NCBI GenBank assembly: GCA_963821585.1
Contig: CAWGEI010000005.1
Location: 6,603-70,602, forward strand
From: an uncultured Acidobacteriota bacterium
Lineage (GTDB): Bacteria; Acidobacteriota; Thermoanaerobaculia; Gp7-AA8
Length of the DNA: 64,000 bases
Direction: 5' to 3'
Positions within the stretch are counted from its first letter, which is position 1. Each line of letters starts with the position of its first letter. This document shows positions 2,405 through 46,245 of this stretch, piece after piece. The translations under genes were made by a program, and so were the position numbers. The notes beneath the pieces are model-generated. The model saw only the letters and a list, made by a program, of their open reading frames with translations, was not told the DNA's origin and made no database searches.

Positions 2405-3948
2405 CGTCTGCAGCAAAAGTCGGCATCGTGATGCTGATCGCCCTGGCCGTTCTCGGATACTTCGTCCTCCGCATCGAGGACATCAGCCTGAGCCGCTCGA
2501 AGACCACGCACGTCGTGAAGGCGGTCTTCGACGACGTCGCCGGTCTCGACGACGAGTCGGCGGTGCGCATCGCCGGCGTCCGCAAAGGGCACGTGACGGA
2601 CATCAAGGTCCTGCCCGACGGCCGCGCGGTGGTGACGATGCAGGTGGACGACGACGTGCCCCTGCACACCAACGCGCAGGCGAAGGTGGCGAACCTCGGC
2701 CTCCTCGGTGAAAAGTACATCGAGCTGGATCCCGGATCAACGCAGGCTCCGGTGCTGAAGACGGACGGCGAGATCGAGCTGCCGGGGACGCAGCCGGCGA
2801 GCTTCGACGACGTGACGGACCAGGTCAAAGCCATCGCGGACGACGTGAAGGCGATCACCGAGTCGCTGCGCGCCGTCGCGGGCGGCCCGACGGGGCAGCA
2901 GCGCCTCGACGAGATCGTGGAGAACGTCCGCGTGATCACGGCGGAGACGCGGGCGCTGATCGCAGCGAACCGCAACAACGTGGACGCGACGCTGGAGAAC
3001 ACCCGCATCATCACCGAGCATCTCCGCAACGAGATCCCGCGCCTGGCGGAATCGATCGACCGCGTCGCGAAGCAGATGGGCGGAACGGTCGGCGAGAACC
3101 GCGAGGATGTACGCGTCGTCGTGCAGAACCTGCGCGGCCTCTCCTCCGACCTGCGCACGACGGCGGACAACCTGAACGCCATCACGGGCAAGGTGAAGAG
3201 CGGCGAAGGGACCGTGGGCAAGCTGTTCTACAGCGACGAAGCGCACGACAAGCTCACCAGCGCGCTGTCGTCCGTCGAAGGCGGCGTGAAGTCGCTGCAG
3301 GAGACCCTCGGCCGCGCCACCCGCATCCAGATGGACCTGGGCATCCGCGCGGATTACTACGCGGGGCTGTCCCAGCAGAAGATCGCGGGCATCGAGCCGA
3401 AGGAGTTCGGCTCGGGCAACTCGCGCAGCGCGGTGGGCCTGCGGCTGATCCCGAACCCGGACATCAACCGTTTCTACAACATCGAGCTGAGCGACGACCC
3501 GCGCGGGAAGCGGCGCGACAAGGTGAACGTCGAGACGCGCACGAACCCGGCCACTGGGCAGAGCGAGACCATCGTCACGGAGACGAGCCGCTACGAGCGC
3601 GACTTCCTGATCTCGGGTCAGGTCGGCTGGCAGCTCGACCCGGCGCTGGCAGTCCGCGTGGGACTGTTCGACAGCACCGGCGGCATGGGCGCGGACTACC
3701 GCCTCAACGACCGGCTCGTGGTGACGGGCGAAGCGTTCGACTTCGGCCAGCGCCGCGACGACAACCCGCACCTGCGCCTCTACGGCGAGTACACGGTCCG
3801 GAAGGAGAAGCCGCGCACGCCGCGCCTCTTCGTCACGAGCGGCATCGACAACGCGCTCAACGACACGGCCTTCACGTTCGGCGGCGGGCTGCGGTGGAAG
3901 GACGAAGACCTGAAGTACTTGCTGGGATCGATTCCCCTCGGAAAGTAG
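2401..3948 (+). CDS. MlaD/MCE-domain protein with a long C-terminal extension
   Basis: 515 aa. There is an N-terminal TM helix, then an MCE fold (VKAVFDDVAGLDDESAVRIAGVRKGHVTDIKV...ANLGLLGEKYIELDPG). The C-terminal half is rich in beta-strand-like segments. Confidence 0.85.
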   Translation: MTSAAKVGIVMLIALAVLGYFVLRIEDISLSRSKTTHVVKAVFDDVAGLDDESAVRIAGVRKGHVTDIKVLPDGRAVVTMQVDDDVPLHTNAQAKVANLGLLGEKYIELDPGSTQAPVLKTDGEIELPGTQPASFDDVTDQVKAIADDVKAITESLRAVAGGPTGQQRLDEIVENVRVITAETRALIAANRNNVDATLENTRIITEHLRNEIPRLAESIDRVAKQMGGTVGENREDVRVVVQNLRGLSSDLRTTADNLNAITGKVKSGEGTVGKLFYSDEAHDKLTSALSSVEGGVKSLQETLGRATRIQMDLGIRADYYAGLSQQKIAGIEPKEFGSGNSRSAVGLRLIPNPDINRFYNIELSDDPRGKRRDKVNVETRTNPATGQSETIVTETSRYERDFLISGQVGWQLDPALAVRVGLFDSTGGMGADYRLNDRLVVTGEAFDFGQRRDDNPHLRLYGEYTVRKEKPRTPRLFVTSGIDNALNDTAFTFGGGLRWKDEDLKYLLGSIPLGK

Positions 3949-5043: not shown

Positions 5044-5213
5044 CTGTCGCCCGCTACGCGGGCTCGTTCCAACGCCCGCTTCGTGTTCCCCCGGCTGAAG
5101 CCGGGGGCTATTTTCTGGCAGCCCGCTACGCGGGCAAGAGGCAATAGACCCCGGCTTCAGCCGGGGGAACGAGCGCGCGACGTTGGATCGAGTCCGCGTA
5201 GCGGGCGGCAGAC
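5044..5213. repeat. Family-2 nested composite palindrome, copy A
   Basis: Layout is CTGTCGCCCGCTACGCGGGCTCG ... CCCCCGGCTGAAGCCGGGGGCTATTTTCT ... GCCCGCTACGCGGGC ... AATAGACCCCGGCTTCAGCCGGGGG ... CGAGTCCGCGTAGCGGGCGGCAGAC. Confidence 0.9.
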
Positions 5214-7743: not shown

Positions 7744-7836
7744 TGGAGTGCGGCGACGACTAGTCGCCGCTTTTCAATCTTTGCACGCTGAGCGCTCGAA
7801 GATAGGAAAGCGGCGACTCGCCGTCGCCGCACTCCA
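7744..7836. repeat. Long hairpin between convergent genes (30-nt arms, about 33-nt spacer)
   Basis: TGGAGTGCGGCGACGACTAGTCGCCGCTTT pairs with AAAGCGGCGACTCGCCGTCGCCGCACTCCA (3 mismatches). Each arm is itself self-complementary (GCGGCGAC/GTCGCCGC). Confidence 0.85.
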
Positions 7837-9565: not shown

Positions 9566-9648
9566 AACGTAGGGCGTGGCTTCAGCCCGCCTCTCTGGTC
9601 GAAACCCCCGCCCACGAGGGGAGGCGGGCTGAAGCCGCGCCCTACGTT
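9566..9648. repeat. Family-1 inverted-doublet (REPIN-like) element, copy 2
   Basis: AACGTAGGGCGTGGCTTCAGCCCGCC ... GGCGGGCTGAAGCCGCGCCCTACGTT with a 31-nt loop. Confidence 0.9.
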
Positions 9649-16671: not shown

Positions 16672-16768
16672 GACGGATAGGACGAATAGGACCTATAGGA
16701 CAAGCAAGAGTCCACCCACCCGTTTCTCCCTATCCGTCCTATAGGTCCTATCCGTCCTATCGTCCTAT
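16668..16768. repeat. Hairpin with arms built from 9-nt ATAGGACNN sub-repeats
   Basis: ATAGGACGGATAGGACGAATAGGACCTATAGGAC ... CTATCCGTCCTATAGGTCCTATCCGTCCTATCGTCCTAT. Confidence 0.88.
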
Positions 16769-17668: not shown

Positions 17669-19706
17669 ATACTTTTTCGAGCTGCTGACCGAAGAGATCC
17701 CCGCGTGGATGCACGACGCGGCGGCCGCCACGCTGCGCGAGCGCCTGAGCGCCCTGTCCCTAAACACGGTGTCTAACGACGTGACCGTCAACTCGACGCC
17801 ACGGCGCATCATCTTCCTGCTGAAGAACCTCGCCGTCCGCGAGGAAGACCGCGAGCAGGAAGTGAAAGGGCCGCCGAAGAAGTCGCCCGAGGCCGCGCTG
17901 CAGGGCTTCCTCAAGAAACAGAACGCCACGGCCGACGACATCCTCCCTTCGACCGACGAGTACATCCGCATCAGGAAGAAGATCACCGGCCGCGACACGC
18001 GGGAGATCCTCGCGGAGCGCATTCCGGAGATCGTTCAGTCGATCCGCTGGCCGAAGATGATGCGCTGGGGCAACGGCGAGCATTCGTACATCCGTCCGAT
18101 CCACAGCGTCGTCTCGATCTTCGAAGGCGAGCACCTGCCGATCACGATCTTCGGCACACCGTCCGGCACGACCACCGTCGGCCACCGCACGCTCGCGCCG
18201 AAGGCCTTCAGCGTCGCGTCGTACAACGACTACGTGACGAAGCTCGAACTGGCGCGCGTGTATATCGACGCCGACCGCCGCAGGCACGGGATGGCCGCGG
18301 CGGCGATCTCGCTGTCCAAGGACGTCGAAGGGAAGCCGGCTGACGACGCGTCGATCTGGTCGCAGTGGCAGTACCTCACCGAATATCCGGGCCTCGTGCG
18401 CGCGGAGTTCCGCGGCGAGTACCTGGCGCTGCCCGAGGAAGTGCTCGTGACGGTGATGCGCGTGCATCAGAAGCAGCTCCCGATCCGCGACCGCAACGAC
18501 CGCCTCACCAGCTCGTTCCTGGCGGTGCTCGACAACGAGGGCGATCCGGACGGCAACGCCGCGTACGGCAACTCCTTCGTCACCAACGCGCGCTTCGCCG
18601 ACGCGCAGTTCTTCTACGACACCGACCGGCGCAGGAAGCTCGAGGACCGCCTCGAGCAGCTCACGCACCTGCAGTTCCAGGAGAAGCTCGGCAACTATCT
18701 CGACAAGACGAAGCGCGTGGAGCGCATCGCGCGCGGGATCCTCGATGACGAGGACGTCGCGACGGCCGCGCGTCTCTGCAAGTCCGACCTCGTCACCGAG
18801 ATGGTGAAGGAGTTCACGGACCTGCAGGGCCAGATCGGCGGCATCTACGCGCGCGAGGAAGGGCTGCCGGACAATGTCTGGCAGGCGATCTACGATCACT
18901 ACCAGCCGGTCAGCCTCGACGACGCGCTGCCGCGCCACATCACCGGCGCGGTGGTCTCACTCGCCGATCGCATCGACACGCTCGTCGGCTTCTTCTCCAT
19001 CGGCGCGAAGCCGACCGGTTCGAAGGACCCGTTCGGCCTGCGGCGCGCCGCGCAGGGCGTCGTGCAGATCCTGCTGAACCGGGACAAACGCGAGGTGAAG
19101 ATCGGCATCGACAAGCTGATCGACCTCGGCATGGAAGCCTACGGACAACAGGCAACGGGTAACGGGCAACTCAAAACCGATCTCCTCGCCTTCTTCGCCG
19201 AGCGCGTCCGCACGATTCTCGAAGCCTCGGCGTGGCAATTCGCGTACGACGAGATCGCCGCGGCGATGGAAGCGGGATGGGCGTCATCGCTCACGGACCT
19301 CGTCGACCGCACCGGCGCCGTGAAGGCCGTTCGCAACGAGCCCGACTTTCTCTCCCTGCTCGACTCGGCGAAGCGCATCGCGAACATCACCGAGGGGCAT
19401 GCGTCGAACCGGGTCGATGCGACGCGGCTCGAGCACGCGACCGAGAAGCGGCTCAACGAGCTCGCCGACGCCGTCGTGGTCCAGATCGGGGAGCTGAGCG
19501 CCGAGCGGCAGTACCGCATGGCCCTCGAATCATTCGCGGCGCTGGCGCCCGAGCTGGAGACGTTCTTCAAGGACGTCCTCGTCAACGTGGAGGATCAGGA
19601 CGTGCGTACCAACCGGCTCTCGCTTCTCCGCAAGGTGGGCGGCGCGGCCATGAAGATCGCGGACGTGACGAAGATCGTCGTCGATCGCCGCGATTACCGC
19701 GCGTGA
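17661..19706 (+). CDS. glyS: Glycine--tRNA ligase beta subunit
   Basis: 681 aa. It overlaps the glyQ end and has a typical GlyS N-terminus ([11 protein letters not shown]). Confidence 0.93.
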
Positions 19707-20947
19707 GCCGCCCAGCCGTCGTCCTCCTGCTCTGCTGCACGCTCCTCGCGTGCCGCGAGGACGCGCCTCCTCCCGCCGCCGCCAAAGCACCCGCGCCGCC
19801 CGCGCGCATCGCGGCGACGCCGGACAATGACTCCGACAACTCGTTGAATCTCATGTACGGCGCCGCGGTCGTCTCCCGCACCGGCGAGCTGCACCTCGAA
19901 AACTCTGCCGTCCACACGATCGACGGGTTCGCCGAGACCATCTGGATGTCCGCGCCCGGCGTGCCGGAAGAGATGCTGGTCTATTCGATGCTCGCGCCCA
20001 CGCGCCTGCAGCGCGTCGGCATCAGCACCCACAGCGGCGACGACGCGGTGGACAGCGTCGCCTTCGCCGCGTCGATGGACGGGAAGACGTGGACGGATCT
20101 CGGCACGCTGAAAGCCACGCGCACGGACGAGCGGCAGTTCCTGGACGTGAAGCCGACCGTCGCGCACTACCTCCGCGTCCGCACGATCGATCCCGCGGGG
20201 CGCTACTACGTCCGCCTGCGCGGTGTCCACGCGATCGGCGAGGAGGTAGCGGCGCCGAAGACACCGTCGTTCAGCGGCTGCTGGATGATCAACGGGGAGC
20301 GCGCGCACCTGGAGCAGCACGGTGCGCGCATCACGGGCGTGATCGAGAGCGATCCGCCGGCGTACATCGACGGCGGCACGGACAACCGCGCGGGGATGAT
20401 CATGTGGATGCGCGGTCTGACGTGGGGCTACGCGGTGATCACGCGCTCGCCTAACGGAGAGCATCTCTCGGGGTTGAGCTTCTTCGAGGAAGTAGACAAG
20501 AACATCGGCGAGGGGTGGTTCGGGGAGAGATGTAACGTAGGGCGTGGCTTCAGCCCGCCCTCCCCGGGGGCGGGCGGGCTGAAGCCACGCCCTACGTTGT
20601 TCTTCGCTCGCGCGAAGCGGTATTCGCTGTACGGGCTGGTCTTCGATGCGAACGACCGGCTCGTCGAGGAAGTGAGCGAACCGACGCTCGATGTCCTGGC
20701 CTCGCTGATCGCCTCTGCGTCGCAGCCGATGCGGCTCGTCGCGCGCGAGCTGCGCTACACCCCCGAGCAGAACCGGCAGCACGCGGCGGCGCGGCTGCAG
20801 GCGATCCGCGCCGCACTCGAACGGCGCGGGGTGAACCTCTCCCGGATCGAGTTCGTCAACGCGGGCGGCGACACCGGCGGAATCGTCCTCCGCTCTTCCC
20901 TTCAGCGAGCGCTCCTCAGCCGCGTCGACCTCGTTTCTGGGACATAA
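19703..20947 (+). CDS. Lipoprotein with a discoidin (F5/8 type C)-like domain and a degenerate OmpA-like C-terminal domain; carries an in-frame family-1 repeat
   Basis: GTG at 19703 overlaps the glyS stop. Lipobox LLAC is present. ...[38 protein letters not shown] is discoidin-like. The frame stays open through the repeat ([23 protein letters not shown]). Confidence 0.75.
20534..20598. repeat. Family-1 inverted-doublet (REPIN-like) element, copy 3, located inside the CDS
   Basis: AACGTAGGGCGTGGCTTCAGCCCGCC ctccccgggggcg GGCGGGCTGAAGCCACGCCCTACGTT. Confidence 0.9.
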
Positions 20948-20957
20948 TCCGGGCGCT

Positions 20958-23663
20958 ATGACGACGACGTACGTCTATTACTTCGGTGATGGCCACGCCG
21001 AGGGCAACGCGAAGATGAAAGAGATCCTCGGCGGCAAAGGCGCGGGCCTCGCCGAGATGACGAACATCGGAGTGCCGGTGCCCCCGGGCTTCACGATCTC
21101 CACGGGCGTCTGCACGTACTTCTACGAGCACGACAAGTCGTATCCGCCCGAGCTGAAGCAGGCCGTCGCGGAGAACCTGGCGAGGGTCGAGGAGTCGGTC
21201 GGACGGAAGTTCGGCGATCACGCCCAACCGCTGCTCGTGTCCGTGCGCTCCGGCGCGCGCGCGTCGATGCCCGGGATGATGGACACGATCCTCAACCTCG
21301 GGCTCAACGACGAGACCACGCAGGGACTGGCGACGTCCTCGGGCGACGAGCGCTTCGCGCTGGATTCGTACCGCCGCTTCATCCAGATGTACTCGGACGT
21401 CGTGCTGGAGATCGACCGCGAGCACTTCGAGCACGAGCTCCACGCCTTGCGCGACCGCGTGGGCGTGAAGACCGACGCGGAGATCCCCGCCGAGTCGCTG
21501 CGCGAGCTCGTCGCCACGTACAAGGGCATCGTCCGCGAGCGCGGCGGCCGCGAGTTCCCGCAGGACGTCCACGATCAACTCTGGGGCGCGATCGGTGCCG
21601 TGTTCACGTCGTGGAACAACCAGCGCGCGATCACCTACCGCAAGCTGAACAACATTCCCGACGACTGGGGCACCGCGGTCAACGTGCAGTCGATGGTGTT
21701 CGGCAACATGGGCGACGACTGCGCCACCGGGGTCGCGTTCACACGCAATCCCGCGAACGGCGAGAGGCGATTCTTCGGCGAGTACCTCCCGAACGCGCAG
21801 GGCGAAGACGTGGTCGCGGGCATCCGCACGCCGCTGCCGATCAGCGAGCTCGAGAAGTCGATGCCCGACGCGTACAACCAGCTCGTCGACGTCTACAAGA
21901 AGCTCGAGTCGCACTACCGCGACATGCAGGACATCGAGTTCACGATCCAGTCGCGGAAGCTGTACCTGCTGCAGACGCGCACCGGCAAGCGCACCGGCTT
22001 CGCCTCCGTGAAGATCGCGTGCGACATGGTCGACGAAGGGCTGATCACGAACACCGAGGCCGTCGAGCGCGTCGAGGCCGGGCAGATCACGCAGCTCCTC
22101 GCGCCGGTGTTCGACGCCGCGGAGAAAGAGAAGGCCCTCAAGGGCGGACGCATGCTCGGACGCGGACTGCCCGCCGGACCGGGCGCCGCGGCGGGACAGA
22201 TCGTTTTCAGCGCGGAGAACGCCGTGCGCATGGCGAAGGACGGCCCGGTGATCCTCGTGCGCATCGAGACGTCGCCCGAGGACATCGCCGGTATGCACAG
22301 CGCCGCGGGCATTCTCACGACGCGCGGCGGACTCACGTCGCACGCCGCCGTCGTCGCGCGCGGCATGGGACGCCCGTGCATCGTCGGCGCGGGCGCGCTG
22401 CGAGTCGACTACGGCAAGGGCGAGCTGCGCAGCGAAGGCCACGAGCCGCTCGAAGAGGGCGACTGGGTCTCCATCGACGGCACGACCGGCGAGGTCATCG
22501 GCGGCAAGCTGGCCACGCGCCCCTCGGAAGTCGTGCAGGTCCTGCTCGAAGGCTCGATGAAGGCGGAGGACTCGGAGACGTACCGCAACTTCGACCGCCT
22601 CCTGAAGTGGGCCGACGAGATCCGCACCCTCGGCATCCGCACGAACGCGGACACGCCGAACGACGCGCACGTCGCGCGCCTGTTCGGCGCGCAGGGCATC
22701 GGCCTGTGCCGCACGGAGCACATGTTCTTCGCGGAAGAGCGCATCCTCCGCGTGCGCGAGATGATCCTCGCGCGCGACGAGAAGGGCCGCCGCAAGGCGC
22801 TCGCCGAGATCCTGCCGTATCAGGCCGGCGACTTCGAAGGGATCTTCCGCGAGCTCGCGGGCATGCCCGTCACCGTGCGCCTCCTCGATCCGCCGCTGCA
22901 CGAGTTCCTGCCGCAGACCGAAGCGCAGATCTCGGCCGTGGCGCGCGAGATGAACTGGGGCTTCGTCGAGCTGCGCAACAAAGTGTCGCAACTGCACGAG
23001 CTCAACCCGATGCTCGGCCACCGCGGCTGCCGCCTCGGCATCACCTACCCCGAGATCTACGAGATGCAGGTGCGCGCGATCTTCCAGGCCGCATGCGCCG
23101 TGAAGAAAGACGGCATCGACGTGTTCCCCGAGGTGATGATCCCCCTGGTCGGGACGACCAAGGAACTGCAGCTCACGACCGAAGTCACGCATCGCGTCGC
23201 CACCGAGGTGATGAAGGAGACGGGCATCCAGGTCGACTACCTCGTCGGGACGATGATCGAGATCCCGCGCGCGGCGCTCATCGCCGGCCAGCTCGCGGAG
23301 ATCGCAGAGTTCTTCTCGTTCGGCACGAACGACCTCACCCAGATGACGTTCGGCTACTCACGCGACGACGCGGGCTCGTTCCTCCCCGAGTACGTCGACA
23401 AGAAGATCCTGAAAAAGGACCCGTTCGAGTCGATCGACCAGGAAGGCGTCGGGCAGCTCGTCCGGCGGGGAACGGACGACGGGCGGGCGGCGAACCCGAA
23501 CCTCAAGGTCGGCGTGTGCGGCGAGCACGGCGGCGACCCCGACTCCATCCGCTTCTTCCGGGCGTGCGGCCTGAACTACGTGTCGTGCTCCCCGTACCGC
23601 GTACCGGTCGCCCGTCTGGCGGCCGCGCAGGCGGAGCTTGAACAGAAGGCCTACGAGGGTTGA
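20958..23663 (+). CDS. ppdK: Pyruvate, phosphate dikinase
   Basis: 901 aa. [10 protein letters not shown], the [18 protein letters not shown] phospho-His loop and the GICGE-like CGEHGGDP C-terminus. Confidence 0.96.
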
Positions 23664-24884: not shown

Positions 24885-24945
24885 AACGTAGGGCGTGGCT
24901 TCAGCCCACCTTTTTGGACGGCACGCTGTAGCCACGCCCTACATT
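24885..24945. repeat. Family-1 element, copy 4 (degenerate right arm)
   Basis: AACGTAGGGCGTGGCTTCAGCCCACC ... GCTGTAGCCACGCCCTACATT. The inner part of the right arm is missing. Confidence 0.7.
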
Positions 24946-29701: not shown

Positions 29702-29890
29702 CTGTCGCCCGCTACGCGGGCTCGTTCCCAGCGACCGCGCTATTCCCCCGGCTGAAGCCGGGGTCTATTTTCTGTAGCCCGCTACGCGGGCAGAATTTGC
29801 CGCCGTAGGCGGCGACAGAAAATAGCCTCCGGCTTCAGCCGGAGGACTGCGACGGGTTGGGGTTGCGAGCCCGCGTATGCGGGCGGCAGA
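29702..29890. repeat. Family-2 nested composite palindrome, copy C
   Basis: CTGTCGCCCGCTACGCGGGCTCGTTCC ... CCCCCGGCTGAAGCCGGGGTCTATTTTCT ... GCCCGCTACGCGGGC / GCCGCCGTAGGCGGC ... AATAGCCTCCGGCTTCAGCCGGAGG ... CGAGCCCGCGTATGCGGGCGGCAGAG. Confidence 0.9.
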
Positions 29891-32683: not shown

Positions 32684-33523
32684 TTGAAGGAACCAACCAA
32701 AATCCGCATCGGCCCGGCGGGCTGGAGCTACAAAGATTGGGAAGGCGTCGTCTACCCGTCGCACGGTTCGAAGTTCGACGCACTCGGCTATCTCGCGCAG
32801 TTTTTCGACACCATCGAGATCAACTCGCCGTTCTATCGCATCCCTCCGCCGACACACTCGAAGAGCTGGGTGAAGCGCGTCGCCGTGAACGACAATTTCA
32901 AGTTCACGACGAAGATCTATCGCGGCTTCACGCACGAGACCGAGGCGCTGTCGAAGGATGACGTGCAGGCGTTCCGCAACTACCTCGACCCTCTCATGGA
33001 AGCCGACCGCCTCGGCGCGATCCTCATCCAGTTCCCGTGGAGCTTCAAGAACACGCCCGAGTCCCGCGCGAAGCTCGTCAAGCTCTTCGGCGCCTTCAAG
33101 GACTACCCGCAGTCCCTCGAAGTACGGCACTCGACGTTCCAGGTGCCGGAGCTCTACGAGCTCCTGGACGAGCACGACGTCGCCTGGGTGAACGTCGACC
33201 AGCCGCTGTTCAGCGACTCCGTGAAGCCGGCGGACACGGTGACCGGTCCCGTCGCGTACGCGCGCTTCCACGGACGCAACTACGAGAAGTGGTTCGCGCA
33301 CGACGAATCGTGGGAGCGCTACAACTATCTCTACTCCGAGCGGGAGCTCGCGCCGTGGGTCGAGCGCATCGAGCGGATGGCGAAGAAGCGCGACACGTAC
33401 GTGATCACCAACAACCACTTCCGCGGCCAGGCCATCCTGAACGCGGGCGACCTCAAGGAGTCGCTGGGCCAGGACGCAACGCTGCCTCCGCAGTTGAAGG
33501 AGGCCTACCCCGACCGGACGTAG
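32684..33523 (+). CDS. DUF72 (UPF0759/YecE-like) protein
   Basis: 279 aa. IRIGPAGWSYKDWEGVVYP...FDTIEINSPFYR is the DUF72 signature. The start is TTG. The stop TAG lies inside the family-1 repeat. Confidence 0.88.
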   Translation: MKEPTKIRIGPAGWSYKDWEGVVYPSHGSKFDALGYLAQFFDTIEINSPFYRIPPPTHSKSWVKRVAVNDNFKFTTKIYRGFTHETEALSKDDVQAFRNYLDPLMEADRLGAILIQFPWSFKNTPESRAKLVKLFGAFKDYPQSLEVRHSTFQVPELYELLDEHDVAWVNVDQPLFSDSVKPADTVTGPVAYARFHGRNYEKWFAHDESWERYNYLYSERELAPWVERIERMAKKRDTYVITNNHFRGQAILNAGDLKESLGQDATLPPQLKEAYPDRT

Positions 33524-33580
33524 GGCGTGGCTTTAGCCCGCCTCCCCCGGGGGAGGCGGGCTAAAGCCACGCCCTACGTT
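33518..33580. repeat. Family-1 inverted-doublet (REPIN-like) element, copy 5, with a compensatory arm substitution
   Basis: ACGTAGGGCGTGGCTTTAGCCCGCC tcccccggggga GGCGGGCTAAAGCCACGCCCTACGTT. Confidence 0.9.
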
Positions 33581-40878: not shown

Positions 40879-41295
40879 ATGCCCTACCTCACCGACGACC
40901 CGATCGATCCCCGCGCGCTCGTCGAGCGCGTCATGCGCCGTTCCGACGGCGCGTACGTCCTCTTCGAAGGCGTCGTGCGCAACCACCACGAAGGCCGGGC
41001 CGTCGAGTCGATCTTCTACGACGCCTACCGTCCCATGGCCGAGAAGGAGATCGATACGATCGTGCGCGAGATCGCCGCTCGCTACCCCGACGTCGCCCTC
41101 GCCATCCTCCACCGCCTCGGCCACCTCATCGTCGGCGACTCCTCGATCGCGATCGTCGCGTCGTCGCCGCACCGCGCCGAGGCGTTCGAGGCCTGCCGGA
41201 TGATGATCGACCGCATCAAAGAGACCGTCCCCATCTGGAAGAAAGAGCGCGGCCCGAATGGCGAGGAGTGGGTCGGATGGCAGGGCCGATGCTGA
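40879..41295 (+). CDS. moaE: Molybdopterin synthase catalytic subunit
   Basis: 138 aa: GAYVLFEGVVRNHHEGRAV...IVASSPHRAEAFEACRMMIDRIKETVPIWKKE. Confidence 0.9.
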   Translation: MPYLTDDPIDPRALVERVMRRSDGAYVLFEGVVRNHHEGRAVESIFYDAYRPMAEKEIDTIVREIAARYPDVALAILHRLGHLIVGDSSIAIVASSPHRAEAFEACRMMIDRIKETVPIWKKERGPNGEEWVGWQGRC

Positions 41296-41924
41296 GCGAC
41301 GAAGTCCCAGCCCTGCCCGCGGCGAGCGCCATCGTCCTCCGCGAGCCATTCGAGATCCTGATGATGCGCCGCCACGCCGGCGCGTCGTTCATGCCCAACG
41401 CCTGGGTCTTTCCCGGCGGCATCGCCGAGGAGCTCGATCACGAGCTCGGCGGACTGAAAGTCACCGCCGTGCGCGAGACCTTCGAAGAGACCGGCGTCTG
41501 GCTCGCCGCGCCGCTCGAAGACCCGGAGCACAAACGCCGGCGCCTCCTCGCCGGCAGCACATCCATCCGGCACCTGCTGGCCGAGGCGCCGTTCGATCCC
41601 GGGACCCTCATCCTCACCTCCCGCTGGATCACGCCCATCGGCGTCCCGAAACGCTTCGACACGTACTTCTACCTGGCCAGGGCCCCCCGCGACACGATCG
41701 CGACCGCCGAGGACCACGAGTCCGTCGACGTCACCTGGATCCATCCCGAAGCAGCGCTCGCGAAACACGCCGCCCGCGAGATGCAGATGGTCTTTCCCAC
41801 CCTGCGCAACCTCGAGGCGCTGTGCGGCTTCGACAGCATCGACGCATTGATCGAGTCGCGCCGCGGCATCACCGTCGAGCCGATCATCCCCGTGCTCGTG
41901 GATGGCAAACCAACGCTGAAGTGA
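41268..41924 (+). CDS. NUDIX hydrolase
   Basis: 218 aa. Nudix box GGIAEELDHELGGLKVTAVRETFEETGV. The start is uncertain; several ATG codons lie within the moaE overlap. Confidence 0.85.
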   Translation: MGRMAGPMLSDEVPALPAASAIVLREPFEILMMRRHAGASFMPNAWVFPGGIAEELDHELGGLKVTAVRETFEETGVWLAAPLEDPEHKRRRLLAGSTSIRHLLAEAPFDPGTLILTSRWITPIGVPKRFDTYFYLARAPRDTIATAEDHESVDVTWIHPEAALAKHAAREMQMVFPTLRNLEALCGFDSIDALIESRRGITVEPIIPVLVDGKPTLK

Positions 41925-41926
41925 CC

Positions 41927-42676
41927 ATGGACATCCGCTCCATCACCGCCCCGAACCCCGGCCCGTTCACCCTCGACGGCACGCGCACCTACCTCCTCGG
42001 CGAGACGGCGGTCCTCGACCCCGGTCCCGCGATCGGCTCGCACATCGATGCGATTCACGCCGCGATGCCGCGTCTCGAGACCATCCTCATCACCCACCGC
42101 CACGGCGATCACGCGCCCGCCGCGGTGCCCCTGAAACAGCGCACCGGCGCGCGGATCATCGCGCCGCGCAACGTCCTCGATAGCGGATTGGACAAGGTCG
42201 ACCAGCGCGTCGAAGGCGGAGAAGTCCTGTCCATCGGCGGCGTCGAGGTCGAAGTGATCGCCACCCCCGGCCACACGAACGAGCACGTGTGCTATCTGAC
42301 GTCCGAGGGCGACCTCTTCACCGGCGACACCATCCTCGGCGCCGGCACCACCGCCATCTTCCCTCCCGACGGCCACATGGGCGACTACCTCCGCTCCCTG
42401 CAGATCCTCCGCGAGCGCAACCCGAAACGGATCCACCCCGCCCACGGTCCCACCCGCGACGACGCCGTCGCGCTCATCGACGAGTACATCACCCACCGTC
42501 TGGCCCGCGAGCGCCAGATCCTCGCCGCAATCGCCGCGGGCGCGCAGACGCTGCAGGACCTGCGCAAGCGCGTCTATCCGGTGCTCAACCCTCAGCTCCA
42601 CGGCGCCGCGGAGATCCAGCTGACCGCGCACCTGATCAAGCTGCGCGAAGAGGGCCGCACCACCCTGTCATTCTGA
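41927..42676 (+). CDS. MBL-fold metallo-hydrolase
   Basis: 249 aa: ILITHRHGDHAPAA...TPGHTNEHVC. The stop TGA lies inside the family-3 repeat. Confidence 0.88.
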   Translation: MDIRSITAPNPGPFTLDGTRTYLLGETAVLDPGPAIGSHIDAIHAAMPRLETILITHRHGDHAPAAVPLKQRTGARIIAPRNVLDSGLDKVDQRVEGGEVLSIGGVEVEVIATPGHTNEHVCYLTSEGDLFTGDTILGAGTTAIFPPDGHMGDYLRSLQILRERNPKRIHPAHGPTRDDAVALIDEYITHRLARERQILAAIAAGAQTLQDLRKRVYPVLNPQLHGAAEIQLTAHLIKLREEGRTTLSF

Positions 42677-42766
42677 GCCGCGTAGACGGCGAAGAATCCC
42701 CCGCCGAAGCATACGACGCGCTCAACGCACGGGATCCTTCGCCGTCTACGCGGCTCAGGATGACAG
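42665..42766. repeat. Family-3 hairpin element (GTCATCCTGAGC...GCGTAGAC...GAAGGATCC type), copy 1
   Basis: CTGTCATTCTGAGCCGCGTAGACGGCGAAGAATCC ... GGATCCTTCGCCGTCTACGCGGCTCAGGATGACAG. Confidence 0.9.
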
Positions 42767-42767
42767 G

Positions 42768-45287: not shown

Positions 45288-46226
45288 ATGTCCCGCTTCA
45301 CCTTCCCCCATGCTCCCGGCGATCTCATCGGTGCACACCTCTCGACGCAGGGAGGGCTGCACACGATCTTCGAGCGCGCGTCCGCCATCGGCGCAACCGC
45401 CGCGGCGCTGTTCGCGAAGAACGGAAACCAGTGGCTAGGGAAGACGCTCACGGACGAGCACTGTGCGACGTTCGCGTCGCAGCGCAACGTGGCGCCGCTG
45501 CTCACGCACGCGTCGTATCTGATCAACCTCGCGGGAACAAACGAGGACTTCCACCGCAAGTCGATCGCCGCGCTGATCGACGAGCTCGATCGCGCCGAAC
45601 GCCTCGGCATTCACGCCGTCGTCCTCCACCCCGGTGCGCACCTGGGCGCGGGCTCCGCTGCAGGGGTAGACCGCATCGCCCGCTCGCTGGACCAGGTCCA
45701 TGCGGCAATCCCGCACCATCGCGTCGTCACGCTGCTGGAGACGGGCGCGGGACAGGGCACGTGCGTCGGCTGCACGTTCGAGGAGCTGGGCCGCATGATC
45801 CGGCTCGTCGACGATCCCAAGCGCGTCGGCATCTGCTTCGACACCTGTCACGTGTTCGCCGCCGGCTACGAGATGCGCACGCGCGACGCGTACGAGCGAA
45901 CCATGGACGAGCTGATCCGCCACGTGGGCCTGGACAACGTCGGCGCGTTCCACCTCAACGACTCGAAGAAACTCCTCGGCTCCCGCGTCGACCGCCACAC
46001 CCACATCGGCGAAGGCGAGCTCGGACTGGAGCCGTTCCGCTTCCTGCTCAACGACCCGCGGTTCGCGCGCATCCCGAAGGTGATCGAGACGCCGAAGGAC
46101 GTGGAGACGATTTCGGACCAGCGCAATTTGCGCGTGTTGCGGTCGCTGATCGGGGAGTCTCAAAGTCGGAAAGTCTCAAAGTCTCAAAGAAGAAGACGAA
46201 CGGCTGCTGTCGCAGCATCTCTTTGA
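45288..46226 (+). CDS. nfo: Endonuclease IV (deoxyribonuclease IV)
   Basis: 312 aa: IGAHLS...HASYLINLA...VLHPGAH...LETGAGQG...CFDTCH...HLNDSK. The last about 25 codons ([24 protein letters not shown]) are encoded by the downstream hairpin repeat. Confidence 0.9.
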
Positions 46227-46245
46227 GACTTTGCGACTTTGAGAC
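46155..46245. repeat. Hairpin with arms built from 8-nt GTCTCAAA sub-repeats
   Basis: GAGTCTCAAAGTCGGAAAGTCTCAAAGTCTCAAAGAAG ... CTCTTTGAGACTTTGCGACTTTGAGAC. The loop holds its own mini-hairpin, GCTGC-tgtc-GCAGC. Confidence 0.88.

Follow-up and report, generated by a model that had tools for sequence, protein, structure and literature searches.

Palindromic element within a predicted lipoprotein gene

The DNA analyzed here, hereafter the window, is a 64-kb stretch (64,000 nucleotides) from an uncultured bacterium of the Acidobacteriota (GTDB lineage Thermoanaerobaculia, Gp7-AA8; contig CAWGEI010000005.1 of assembly GCA_963821585.1, positions 6,603 to 70,602), and represents housekeeping chromosome, carrying glyQS, PPDK, polA, gcvPTH, selB, suf, ddl, and maf. 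Within it, a 65-bp palindrome, identified below as a doublet of repetitive extragenic palindromic (REP) units, was found to lie in frame inside the gene for a predicted lipoprotein, between two domains. The original prediction, made from the letters and a list of open reading frames (ORFs), had placed this palindrome at 20534–20598 and had the ORF 19703–20947 running open through it; an inverted-repeat search returned exactly these coordinates, and translation confirmed the uninterrupted frame. The features of the gene are as follows.

19703–20947, plus strand: host gene, encoding a predicted lipoprotein of 414 amino acids (ORF and translation)
19703–19753, plus strand: putative signal peptide with lipobox (..TLLAC, Cys17), read from the sequence and assigned by pattern
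19913–20200, plus strand: F5/8 type C (discoidin, CBM32-like) domain, residues 71–166 (Pfam PF00754 F5_F8_type_C, E = 4e-9)
20534–20598: REP doublet (REPIN-like palindrome) of 65 bp, an inverted repeat belonging to a family of five copies
20534–20565, plus strand: left REP unit, with an AAC-GTAG tag followed by its own 9-bp bulged stem and TTCA loop; no mismatches to the family core
20567–20598, minus strand: right REP unit, an inverted copy of the left; no mismatches to the family core on the minus strand
20599–20947, plus strand: C-terminal divergent OmpA-like domain, residues 300–414, alternating beta/alpha with a confident AlphaFold2 fold

The two arms of the element (20534–20565 and 20567–20598) are 32 nt each, 97% complementary, and separated by a single nucleotide. 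Predicted folding of one 30-nt arm as single-stranded DNA gave −9.3 kcal/mol (z = −3.8), a value that no shuffle out of 200 equaled, the structure being a 9-bp bulged stem closed by a TTCA loop; as RNA, the whole element was predicted to form a hairpin of −74.1 kcal/mol (z = −11.6). Together with one further base, the element makes up 22 codons (residues 278–299), which constitute the entire interdomain linker and give a Gly/Pro/Ser-rich translation. The expectation that a single frame avoids the TAG of the element was not borne out, as two of the three frames are stop-free (NVGRGFSPP... and RRAWLQPA...) and only the third contains TAG and TGA; by palindromic symmetry, the opposite strand shows the same openness. 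A scan for intrinsic terminators over 19500–21200 found none, and no terminator-like U-tract follows the element hairpin. Likewise, no covariance model of Rfam 15 matched the element at its gathering score, generic hairpins (e.g., miRNA precursors) reaching 20–36 bits against 60–99.

Repeat family and class of the element

The 23-nt arm core GTAGGGCGTGGCTTCAGCCCGCC gave 10 matches in the window, forming five inverted pairs, and none in 100 dinucleotide shuffles. All 10 arms of the five copies start with (A)A(C/T)GTAGGG, and in each copy the two arms are inverted relative to each other and 0–27 nt apart. The palindrome was thus confirmed to be, as originally proposed, a member of a dispersed family located in frame between two domains of one gene. 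The other copies are listed below.

1736–1800 (copy 1): its GTAG gives the TAG stop (1740–1742) of the upstream plus-strand gene
9566–9648 (copy 2): 27-nt spacer; intergenic, between two minus-strand genes
24885–24945 (copy 4): degenerate right arm; intergenic
33518–33579 (copy 5): perfect palindrome with 31-nt arms; gives the TAG stop (33521–33523) of the gene 32684–33523

Four of the five copies are intergenic or overlap a gene 3' end. The other copies had been supposed to terminate genes, which holds for those at 1736 and 33518, but not for those at 9566 and 24885. Neither a target-site duplication nor a common flanking motif was consistent among the five window copies; a TGT direct repeat flanks two of them, which is compatible with chance. 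More generally, the window contains 16 strong palindromes of 40–104 bp in roughly nine families, among which only 20534–20598 lies inside a well-supported gene.

REPINs are hairpin-forming REP doublets that are mobilized by REP-associated tyrosine transposases (RAYTs). The present element shares with them two inverted REP units with a short spacer that form one long hairpin, dispersed near-identical copies, and the GTAG tag, a hallmark of RAYT-associated REPs. It differs in that no RAYT gene or REPtron was found within the window, the Y1 transposase domain (PF01797) not being among the matches listed for its about 48 genes. Four features of structure and distribution identify the element as a GTAG-tagged, REPIN-like REP doublet, namely a GC-rich imperfect stem-loop unit of 20–40 bp, the 5' GTAG tag, inverted pairing with a short spacer, and dispersed near-identical copies that are mostly extragenic near gene 3' ends. 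A miniature inverted-repeat transposable element was rejected, as the element is palindromic throughout, lacks a separate core, and has no consistent direct repeat flanking its five copies. Membership in the Rickettsia palindromic elements (RPEs) was also rejected, as these are about 105–146 bp long and occur in Rickettsia, whereas the present element is a GTAG-type repeat of 65 bp in Thermoanaerobaculia.

The GTAG REPs surveyed by Di Nocera, De Gregorio & Rocco (2013, BMC Genomics 14:522; PMC3733652) provide the closest comparison. In that survey, GTAG REP termini often gave the TAG stops of flanking ORFs, and in several species a minority of copies lay wholly inside ORFs, more than half of these being dimers that encode 20–30 amino acids; such inserts were suggested to be neutral, as they lie in flexible linkers or loops (PMC3733652). 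An in-frame GTAG REP dimer inside a gene is hence an already known phenomenon, contrary to the novelty implied by the original prediction, and is extended here to the Acidobacteriota. The two systems share the tag with a GC-rich hairpin, inverted pairs, a mostly extragenic location near gene 3' ends, and TAG donation. The present case differs in its host (Acidobacteriota, Thermoanaerobaculia), in the repeat sequence, and in the host gene, a lipoprotein gene as opposed to DNA-repair or RNA-related genes; moreover, the element here is an entire linker, an older one seemingly having been replaced, and several families share the site across orthologs. As far as they are relayed in two later papers (PMC3733652, PMC3184786), Ogata et al. 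(2000) regarded RPEs as selfish elements located in frame in ORFs, whose proteins are likely still functional; PMC3184786 is a review that covers RPEs among other in-frame repeats, and RPE-4 and RPE-6 are of CGTC type, not GTAG type (PMC3733652). The likeness to RPEs is that of a selfish palindrome in frame in an ORF, both being viewed as a source of new peptide segments, but there is no sequence relationship, and the present element occurs in a free-living, high-GC soil lineage.

The host protein

The GTG start of the host gene overlaps the glyS stop, and the gene order glyS, lipoprotein gene, PPDK is conserved among relatives. The encoded protein consists, in order, of the discoidin/F5-8 type C domain, a second beta domain, the linker, and the divergent OmpA-like domain. 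The discoidin domain claimed upstream of the element was recovered by Pfam, but it does not adjoin the element, because the second beta domain of about 110 residues intervenes. In the AlphaFold2 model (mean predicted local distance difference test score, pLDDT, 88; predicted TM-score 0.84), residues 277–296 form a coil without secondary structure at a pLDDT of about 54, the flanking domains being above 90; the linker is predicted to be disordered. The best Foldseek matches of the model were CBM32/F5-8C domains (e.g., 3f2z, TM 0.77), and nothing beyond the discoidin/CBM32 domain was recovered when the whole model was compared with the PDB. The identity of the C-terminal domain therefore rests on Pfam matches in orthologs: the OmpA match in the window protein is weak (residues 314–389, E = 0.06; PF00691 score of 14 bits, below the cut-off of 27), and 29 of 36 orthologs match OmpA at E ≤ 0.01 (best E = 7e-7), so that the degenerate OmpA-like domain anticipated downstream holds at the level of the family.

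Cys17 of the lipobox LLAC is nearly invariant in the homolog alignment. Pal-type peptidoglycan-associated lipoproteins are marked by a lipobox Cys and a C-terminal OmpA_C-like domain; in the host protein, the latter is below threshold, though matched in most orthologs, and the extra discoidin and beta domains are not Pal-like. From the lipobox and the OmpA-like domain, a periplasmic peptidoglycan-associated lipoprotein would fit just as well as the surface protein that was originally proposed.

Full-length homologs (n = 57) were all found in metagenome-assembled genomes (MAGs) of Thermoanaerobaculia/Acidobacteriota, with lengths of about 375–440 amino acids. Each of the 57 contains both halves in one protein; fusion by the element of two normally separate genes, an outcome that the original prediction had named as fatal to it, was thereby ruled out.

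Apparent replacement of an older linker

When aligned with the DNA of close relatives, the element starts right after a conserved Cys codon (TGT, directly followed by AACGTAGGG) and ends at the conserved TTCTTCGC, and therefore represents the whole linker and not an addition to one. The closest relative, L022/P0002, was placed as sister to the window with a bootstrap of 99/100, sharing 85% amino acid identity in the conserved parts on the two sides of the linker and 82% over the full-length alignment. Its linker is 42 nt long (14 residues), non-palindromic, and unrelated to the element. The 42-nt type looks ancestral, since DNA-level homology connects it with the linkers of L036/P0008 and L037/P0012, members of other well-supported pairs, although the branching of these two relative to the window and L022 has weak bootstrap support (14–23/100). 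On that reading, the element would have arrived after the split from L022, replacing the earlier linker by one of 66 nt in place of 42, so that 24 nt (8 codons) were gained on balance and the frame was kept. The predicted insert of 21–22 residues was accordingly right in size, 22 residues being encoded, but the segment appears to have taken the place of a 14-residue linker instead of being added to one. A small perfect hairpin, CTTCGC-TCGC-GCGAAG (20602–20617), lies directly 3' of the element in the conserved FARAK codons; it is shared by L022 and occurs in the ortholog L001 with a shorter 5-bp stem (TTCGC/GCGAA).

Both 23-nt arm cores of the window copy have no mismatches to the family core, which sets a 95% upper bound of 0.063 per site on their divergence. 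Because this bound compares with a synonymous divergence (dS) of about 0.28–0.30 between the window and L022, the window copy is estimated to be young. Dating by identity was equivocal: the elements of the window and L001 are 0.89 identical, which exceeds the 0.69 at 4-fold degenerate sites (P = 1e-4), but not the 0.82 of the overall coding sequence (CDS) (P = 0.08). The two copies are considered independent because of the tree and the shared non-palindromic linker, not because of the identity test.

Recurrence of palindromes at the orthologous linker

The recurrence of palindromes at this site was assessed in about 33 Thermoanaerobaculia orthologs; linker palindromicity was scored against 100 dinucleotide shuffles, and the tree was built without the linker columns. 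The window linker scored 29 (shuffle maximum 11), and high scores were also obtained for L001 (23), L004, which equals L025 (29), L005 (19), L007 (16), and L023 (19); the remaining linkers fell within the shuffle range. Weak palindromes in the A/G/P-rich linkers of L002 and L003, with scores in that range, were not counted. A scan of CDS for internal palindromes used homology-defined spans, as a scan based on the G+C content of third codon positions (GC3) missed known cases; it added palindromic linkers in L034 and L039. The families at the linker are as follows.

Family 1: window and L001
Family 1b, a variant one base shorter: L004, L005, L038, and L039
ATAGGTCCTAT-type: L007, and L006 as a diverged homolog
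TGGAGTGCGG-type, about 110 nt: L023
GGAGCGCCG...-type, 99 nt: L034, and L008 as a footprint of one 20-nt arm
Coordinates of the in-frame family-1 and family-1b copies: window 20534–20598; L001:3847-3932; L004:3708-3777; L005:3684-3733; L039:2314-2366 and, in glyS instead of the linker, L039:912-971

The linker repeats are real dispersed families. A mismatch-tolerant search revealed second copies of the L004 and L023 families elsewhere in the same loci, and the window itself holds relatives of the L007 type (at 16677) and the L023 type (at 7744); exact family-1 copies were absent from the flanks of the ortholog loci outside the linkers. A family-1 footprint considered in the distant P0044/46/47 clade ('GSLKPR') was dropped, because L028, the only related locus available as DNA, lacks the arm core.

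When placed on the tree, these linkers showed both inheritance and turnover. Clade B (P0025/26/27/30/34) is monophyletic with a bootstrap of 100, and its members share identical junctions, which point to one old insertion; the inherited copies have decayed by central deletions of 9–12 nt and, in L038, by loss of the left arm. L007/P0029, the sister pair of clade B (bootstrap 100), carries a different family, and P0003 and P0007, sisters with a bootstrap of 100 and 90% amino acid identity, likewise carry different families. The L001 linker consists of a partial left arm (L001:3847-3870, GCAGGGCGTGGCTTCAGCCCG, encoding AGRGFSP) followed by a complete element, which indicates either two successive events or a partial duplication. 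In L034, a 99-nt palindrome of the fourth family (2803-2901) forms the linker (RSAAFQAAGPPASSRQGDGRQDASVPAGRMPALQ), and in L008 only the exact 20-nt right arm is retained (3727-3746), encoding PAGRMPA. At the protein level, PAGRMPA was also noticed in the linkers of P0037 and P0038.

From these sequences, at least six independent colonizations were counted (window, L001, L023, the ancestor of clade B, the ancestor of L006/L007, and the L034/L008 lineage), involving at least four repeat families. About two thirds of the orthologs have no palindrome at the linker, which ranges in length between about 14 and 47 residues. A precedent for different REPs at an orthologous coding site is recB of Xanthomonas campestris and X. 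oryzae, in which they occupy about the same position (PMC3733652); that is a single two-species case, whereas the present site combines at least six events, four families, inheritance with decay, and linker replacement on a tree. In the literature, we found no description of recurrence on this scale at one orthologous linker across several families, nor of an element replacing an older linker.

Probable read-through and constraint downstream of the linker

GC3 shows the same phase on either side of the element (0.90 upstream and 0.85 downstream). The ratio of nonsynonymous to synonymous divergence (dN/dS) downstream of the linker was 0.17–0.48 in element-bearing pairs and 0.45 in an element-free pair. 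For the window, the OmpA-like part gave 0.48 against L022 and 0.27 against L001, the N-terminal part giving 0.26 against L022, and in clade B, with its older inherited copies, the downstream value was 0.24–0.25. As the downstream domain is under purifying selection in element-bearing lineages, read-through translation of the element is the best inference from these comparisons.

These values also bear on whether the arrangement arose by misassembly of a metagenome-derived contig or reflects a gene inactivated by the insertion and still without stops. Such a view could appeal to the source, which is probably a MAG or long contig, to the youth of the copy, since a pseudogene might still look intact, and to the C-terminal dN/dS against L022, which is above the N-terminal value. 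The element-free pair, however, has much the same C-terminal ratio, and the low ratio behind the older copies of clade B argues that genes with such linkers have long been functional. In addition, the phenomenon recurs at this site in independently made assemblies, the identical L004 and L025 coming from different data sets, and the replacement in the window keeps the frame. We regard this explanation as scarcely credible, the least probable of those considered.

A second possibility is that the hairpin or its peptide is kept for a function, such as a pause between domains, a processing or stability site, intragenic attenuation, or the Gly/Pro-rich peptide itself. This would be in keeping with a very stable hairpin exactly at the domain boundary, with the recurrence of palindromes there, with the single frame shared by the in-frame family-1/1b copies, and with the excess identity of the window and L001 elements over 4-fold sites. 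That excess, however, is not significant against the CDS as a whole, and independent recent insertions of the family consensus would explain it as well. Selection for the hairpin is unlikely because inherited copies lose palindromy by central and arm deletions, as in clade B and L008, and because about two thirds of the orthologs lack a linker palindrome; moreover, four unrelated sequences yield unrelated peptides, and the hairpin has no U-tract of the terminator kind. Retention for function is thus considered very improbable.

Concentration of insertions at the linker

Seven of the eight intra-CDS palindromes detected are at the linker and one is in a GlyS loop (L039), while PPDK has none (186 kb of CDS from 38 loci). 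Under uniform placement, the finding of six out of seven independent events in about 1.6% of the sequence has P ~1e-10, a value in which insertion bias and survival are combined.

The exceptional copy is a family-1b REP doublet in frame in the glycyl-tRNA synthetase beta subunit of the P0030 genome (L039:912-971, in glyS). Its reading frame (GGAAGFSPPTASGGLKPAAPL) is the one used in the lipoprotein, and it adds 11 residues relative to the corresponding GlyS loop of the window (residues about 494–505, nucleotides about 19140–19175), the flanks being near-identical.

Such concentration could mean that the linker DNA, or a repeat resident in it, is a preferred site of REP insertion or replacement, at which elements are serially exchanged. 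Apart from the six events and four families in so small a share of the surveyed CDS, sister lineages carry different families (P0003 and P0007; clade B and L006/L007), as the replacement of one element by another would produce, and the partial arm preceding a full element in L001 would be the trace of serial events. The elements also replace an earlier linker instead of extending it, REPs are documented targets of other mobile elements (PMC3184786, PMC3733652), and the conserved small hairpin CTTCGC-N4-GCGAAG lies directly 3' of the site. Against this, the five window copies share neither a flanking motif nor a target-site duplication, and the comparison genes, GlyS and PPDK, are compact and essential, so that a selection filter alone predicts few survivors in them. 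The other in-frame copy, that in GlyS of L039, is also in a variable loop, as a permissive site predicts, and the sister of the window has a non-repeat linker, so that a resident element is unneeded unless it was gained and lost tracelessly. On balance, a targeted hotspot is rather unlikely. The fuller form of this proposal, in which the linker is a landing pad where different REP families are preferentially inserted and serially overwrite one another, their Gly/Pro-rich translations being kept as a tether, appears similarly doubtful.

Origin of the linker

The explanation that we prefer, with a probability of roughly 0.75, is that a disordered and permissive linker has captured selfish repeats neutrally and that these then decay. 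In this scheme, non-autonomous GTAG-tagged REP doublets would bombard the repeat-dense Thermoanaerobaculia genome, presumably by RAYT-type transposition, and insertions into coding DNA would almost always be purged by selection. Once the lineage had separated from its closest sampled relative, one copy would have landed in the linker DNA that joins the beta-sandwich and OmpA-like halves, and this insertion, together with accompanying deletions in an order that can only be proposed, would have replaced the 14-residue, seemingly ancestral linker. Two open frames per strand and a flexible Gly/Pro/Ser-rich peptide would have kept the gene intact, such that the repeat would now be read as the whole 22-residue linker. 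The linker would thereby act as a permissive sink, unconstrained in sequence and length, in which in-frame insertions survive, are inherited, and then decay through point mutations, central deletions, and arm deletions, each event being essentially neutral. Neutrality is favored by the decay of the copies in clade B, L038, and L008 and by the many orthologs that lack a palindrome.

Several observations weigh against this explanation. The concentration of events at one 60–100-bp site (P ~1e-10) could mean insertion targeting. All four independent in-frame family-1/1b events use the GFSPP...GLKP frame and none the RRAWLQPA...AEATPYV frame (P = 0.06), which hints at selection for the Gly/Pro/Ser-rich reading. 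The precise replacement of a linker by a young, near-perfect element would need an insertion and at least two deletions in quick succession, which is not obviously neutral or likely, and the deeper nodes behind both the ancestral linker and the dating have weak bootstraps (14–23/100). In the mRNA, a hairpin of −74 kcal/mol could impede ribosomes or attract RNases, translation being something that we infer. Finally, no RAYT gene was found and no target-site duplication was visible in the window, so that the mechanism of mobilization is likewise conjectural.

The orthologs nevertheless offer a time course at a single site, running from a fresh insertion in the window and serial insertion in L001 through vertical inheritance, deletions at the center, and the loss of an arm to a residual footprint, and across four families this series traces a path from a selfish palindrome to an ordinary-looking linker. 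As a natural system, it can also be used to ask whether REP/REPIN elements insert at preferred targets or are just filtered by selection afterwards. If the landing-pad proposal were true, REP/REPIN insertion would have a definable target preference readable from a repeatedly hit natural site, and selfish palindromes would give rise to interdomain linkers in Thermoanaerobaculia regularly, not just by rare accident. In repeat-dense, high-GC genomes, annotation pipelines and repeat maskers should allow for elements of this kind within genuine genes.

Other palindromes in the window

Two further palindromes, at 42664–42767 and 46157–46245, overlap the 3' ends of the genes 41258–42676 and 45288–46226, respectively, and may encode C-terminal residues of these genes. 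The sole Rfam match in the window at the gathering score was the Acido-Lenti-1 RNA (RF01687) at 29798–29845 on the minus strand (38.9 bits against a cut-off of 37). This match corresponds to one arm of the palindrome 29744–29846, a dispersed CCCCCGGCTGAAGCCGGGG-type repeat with a related copy at 5085–5170, which suggests that, in this window at least, the Acido-Lenti-1 'small RNA' motif is a unit of a REP-like repeat.

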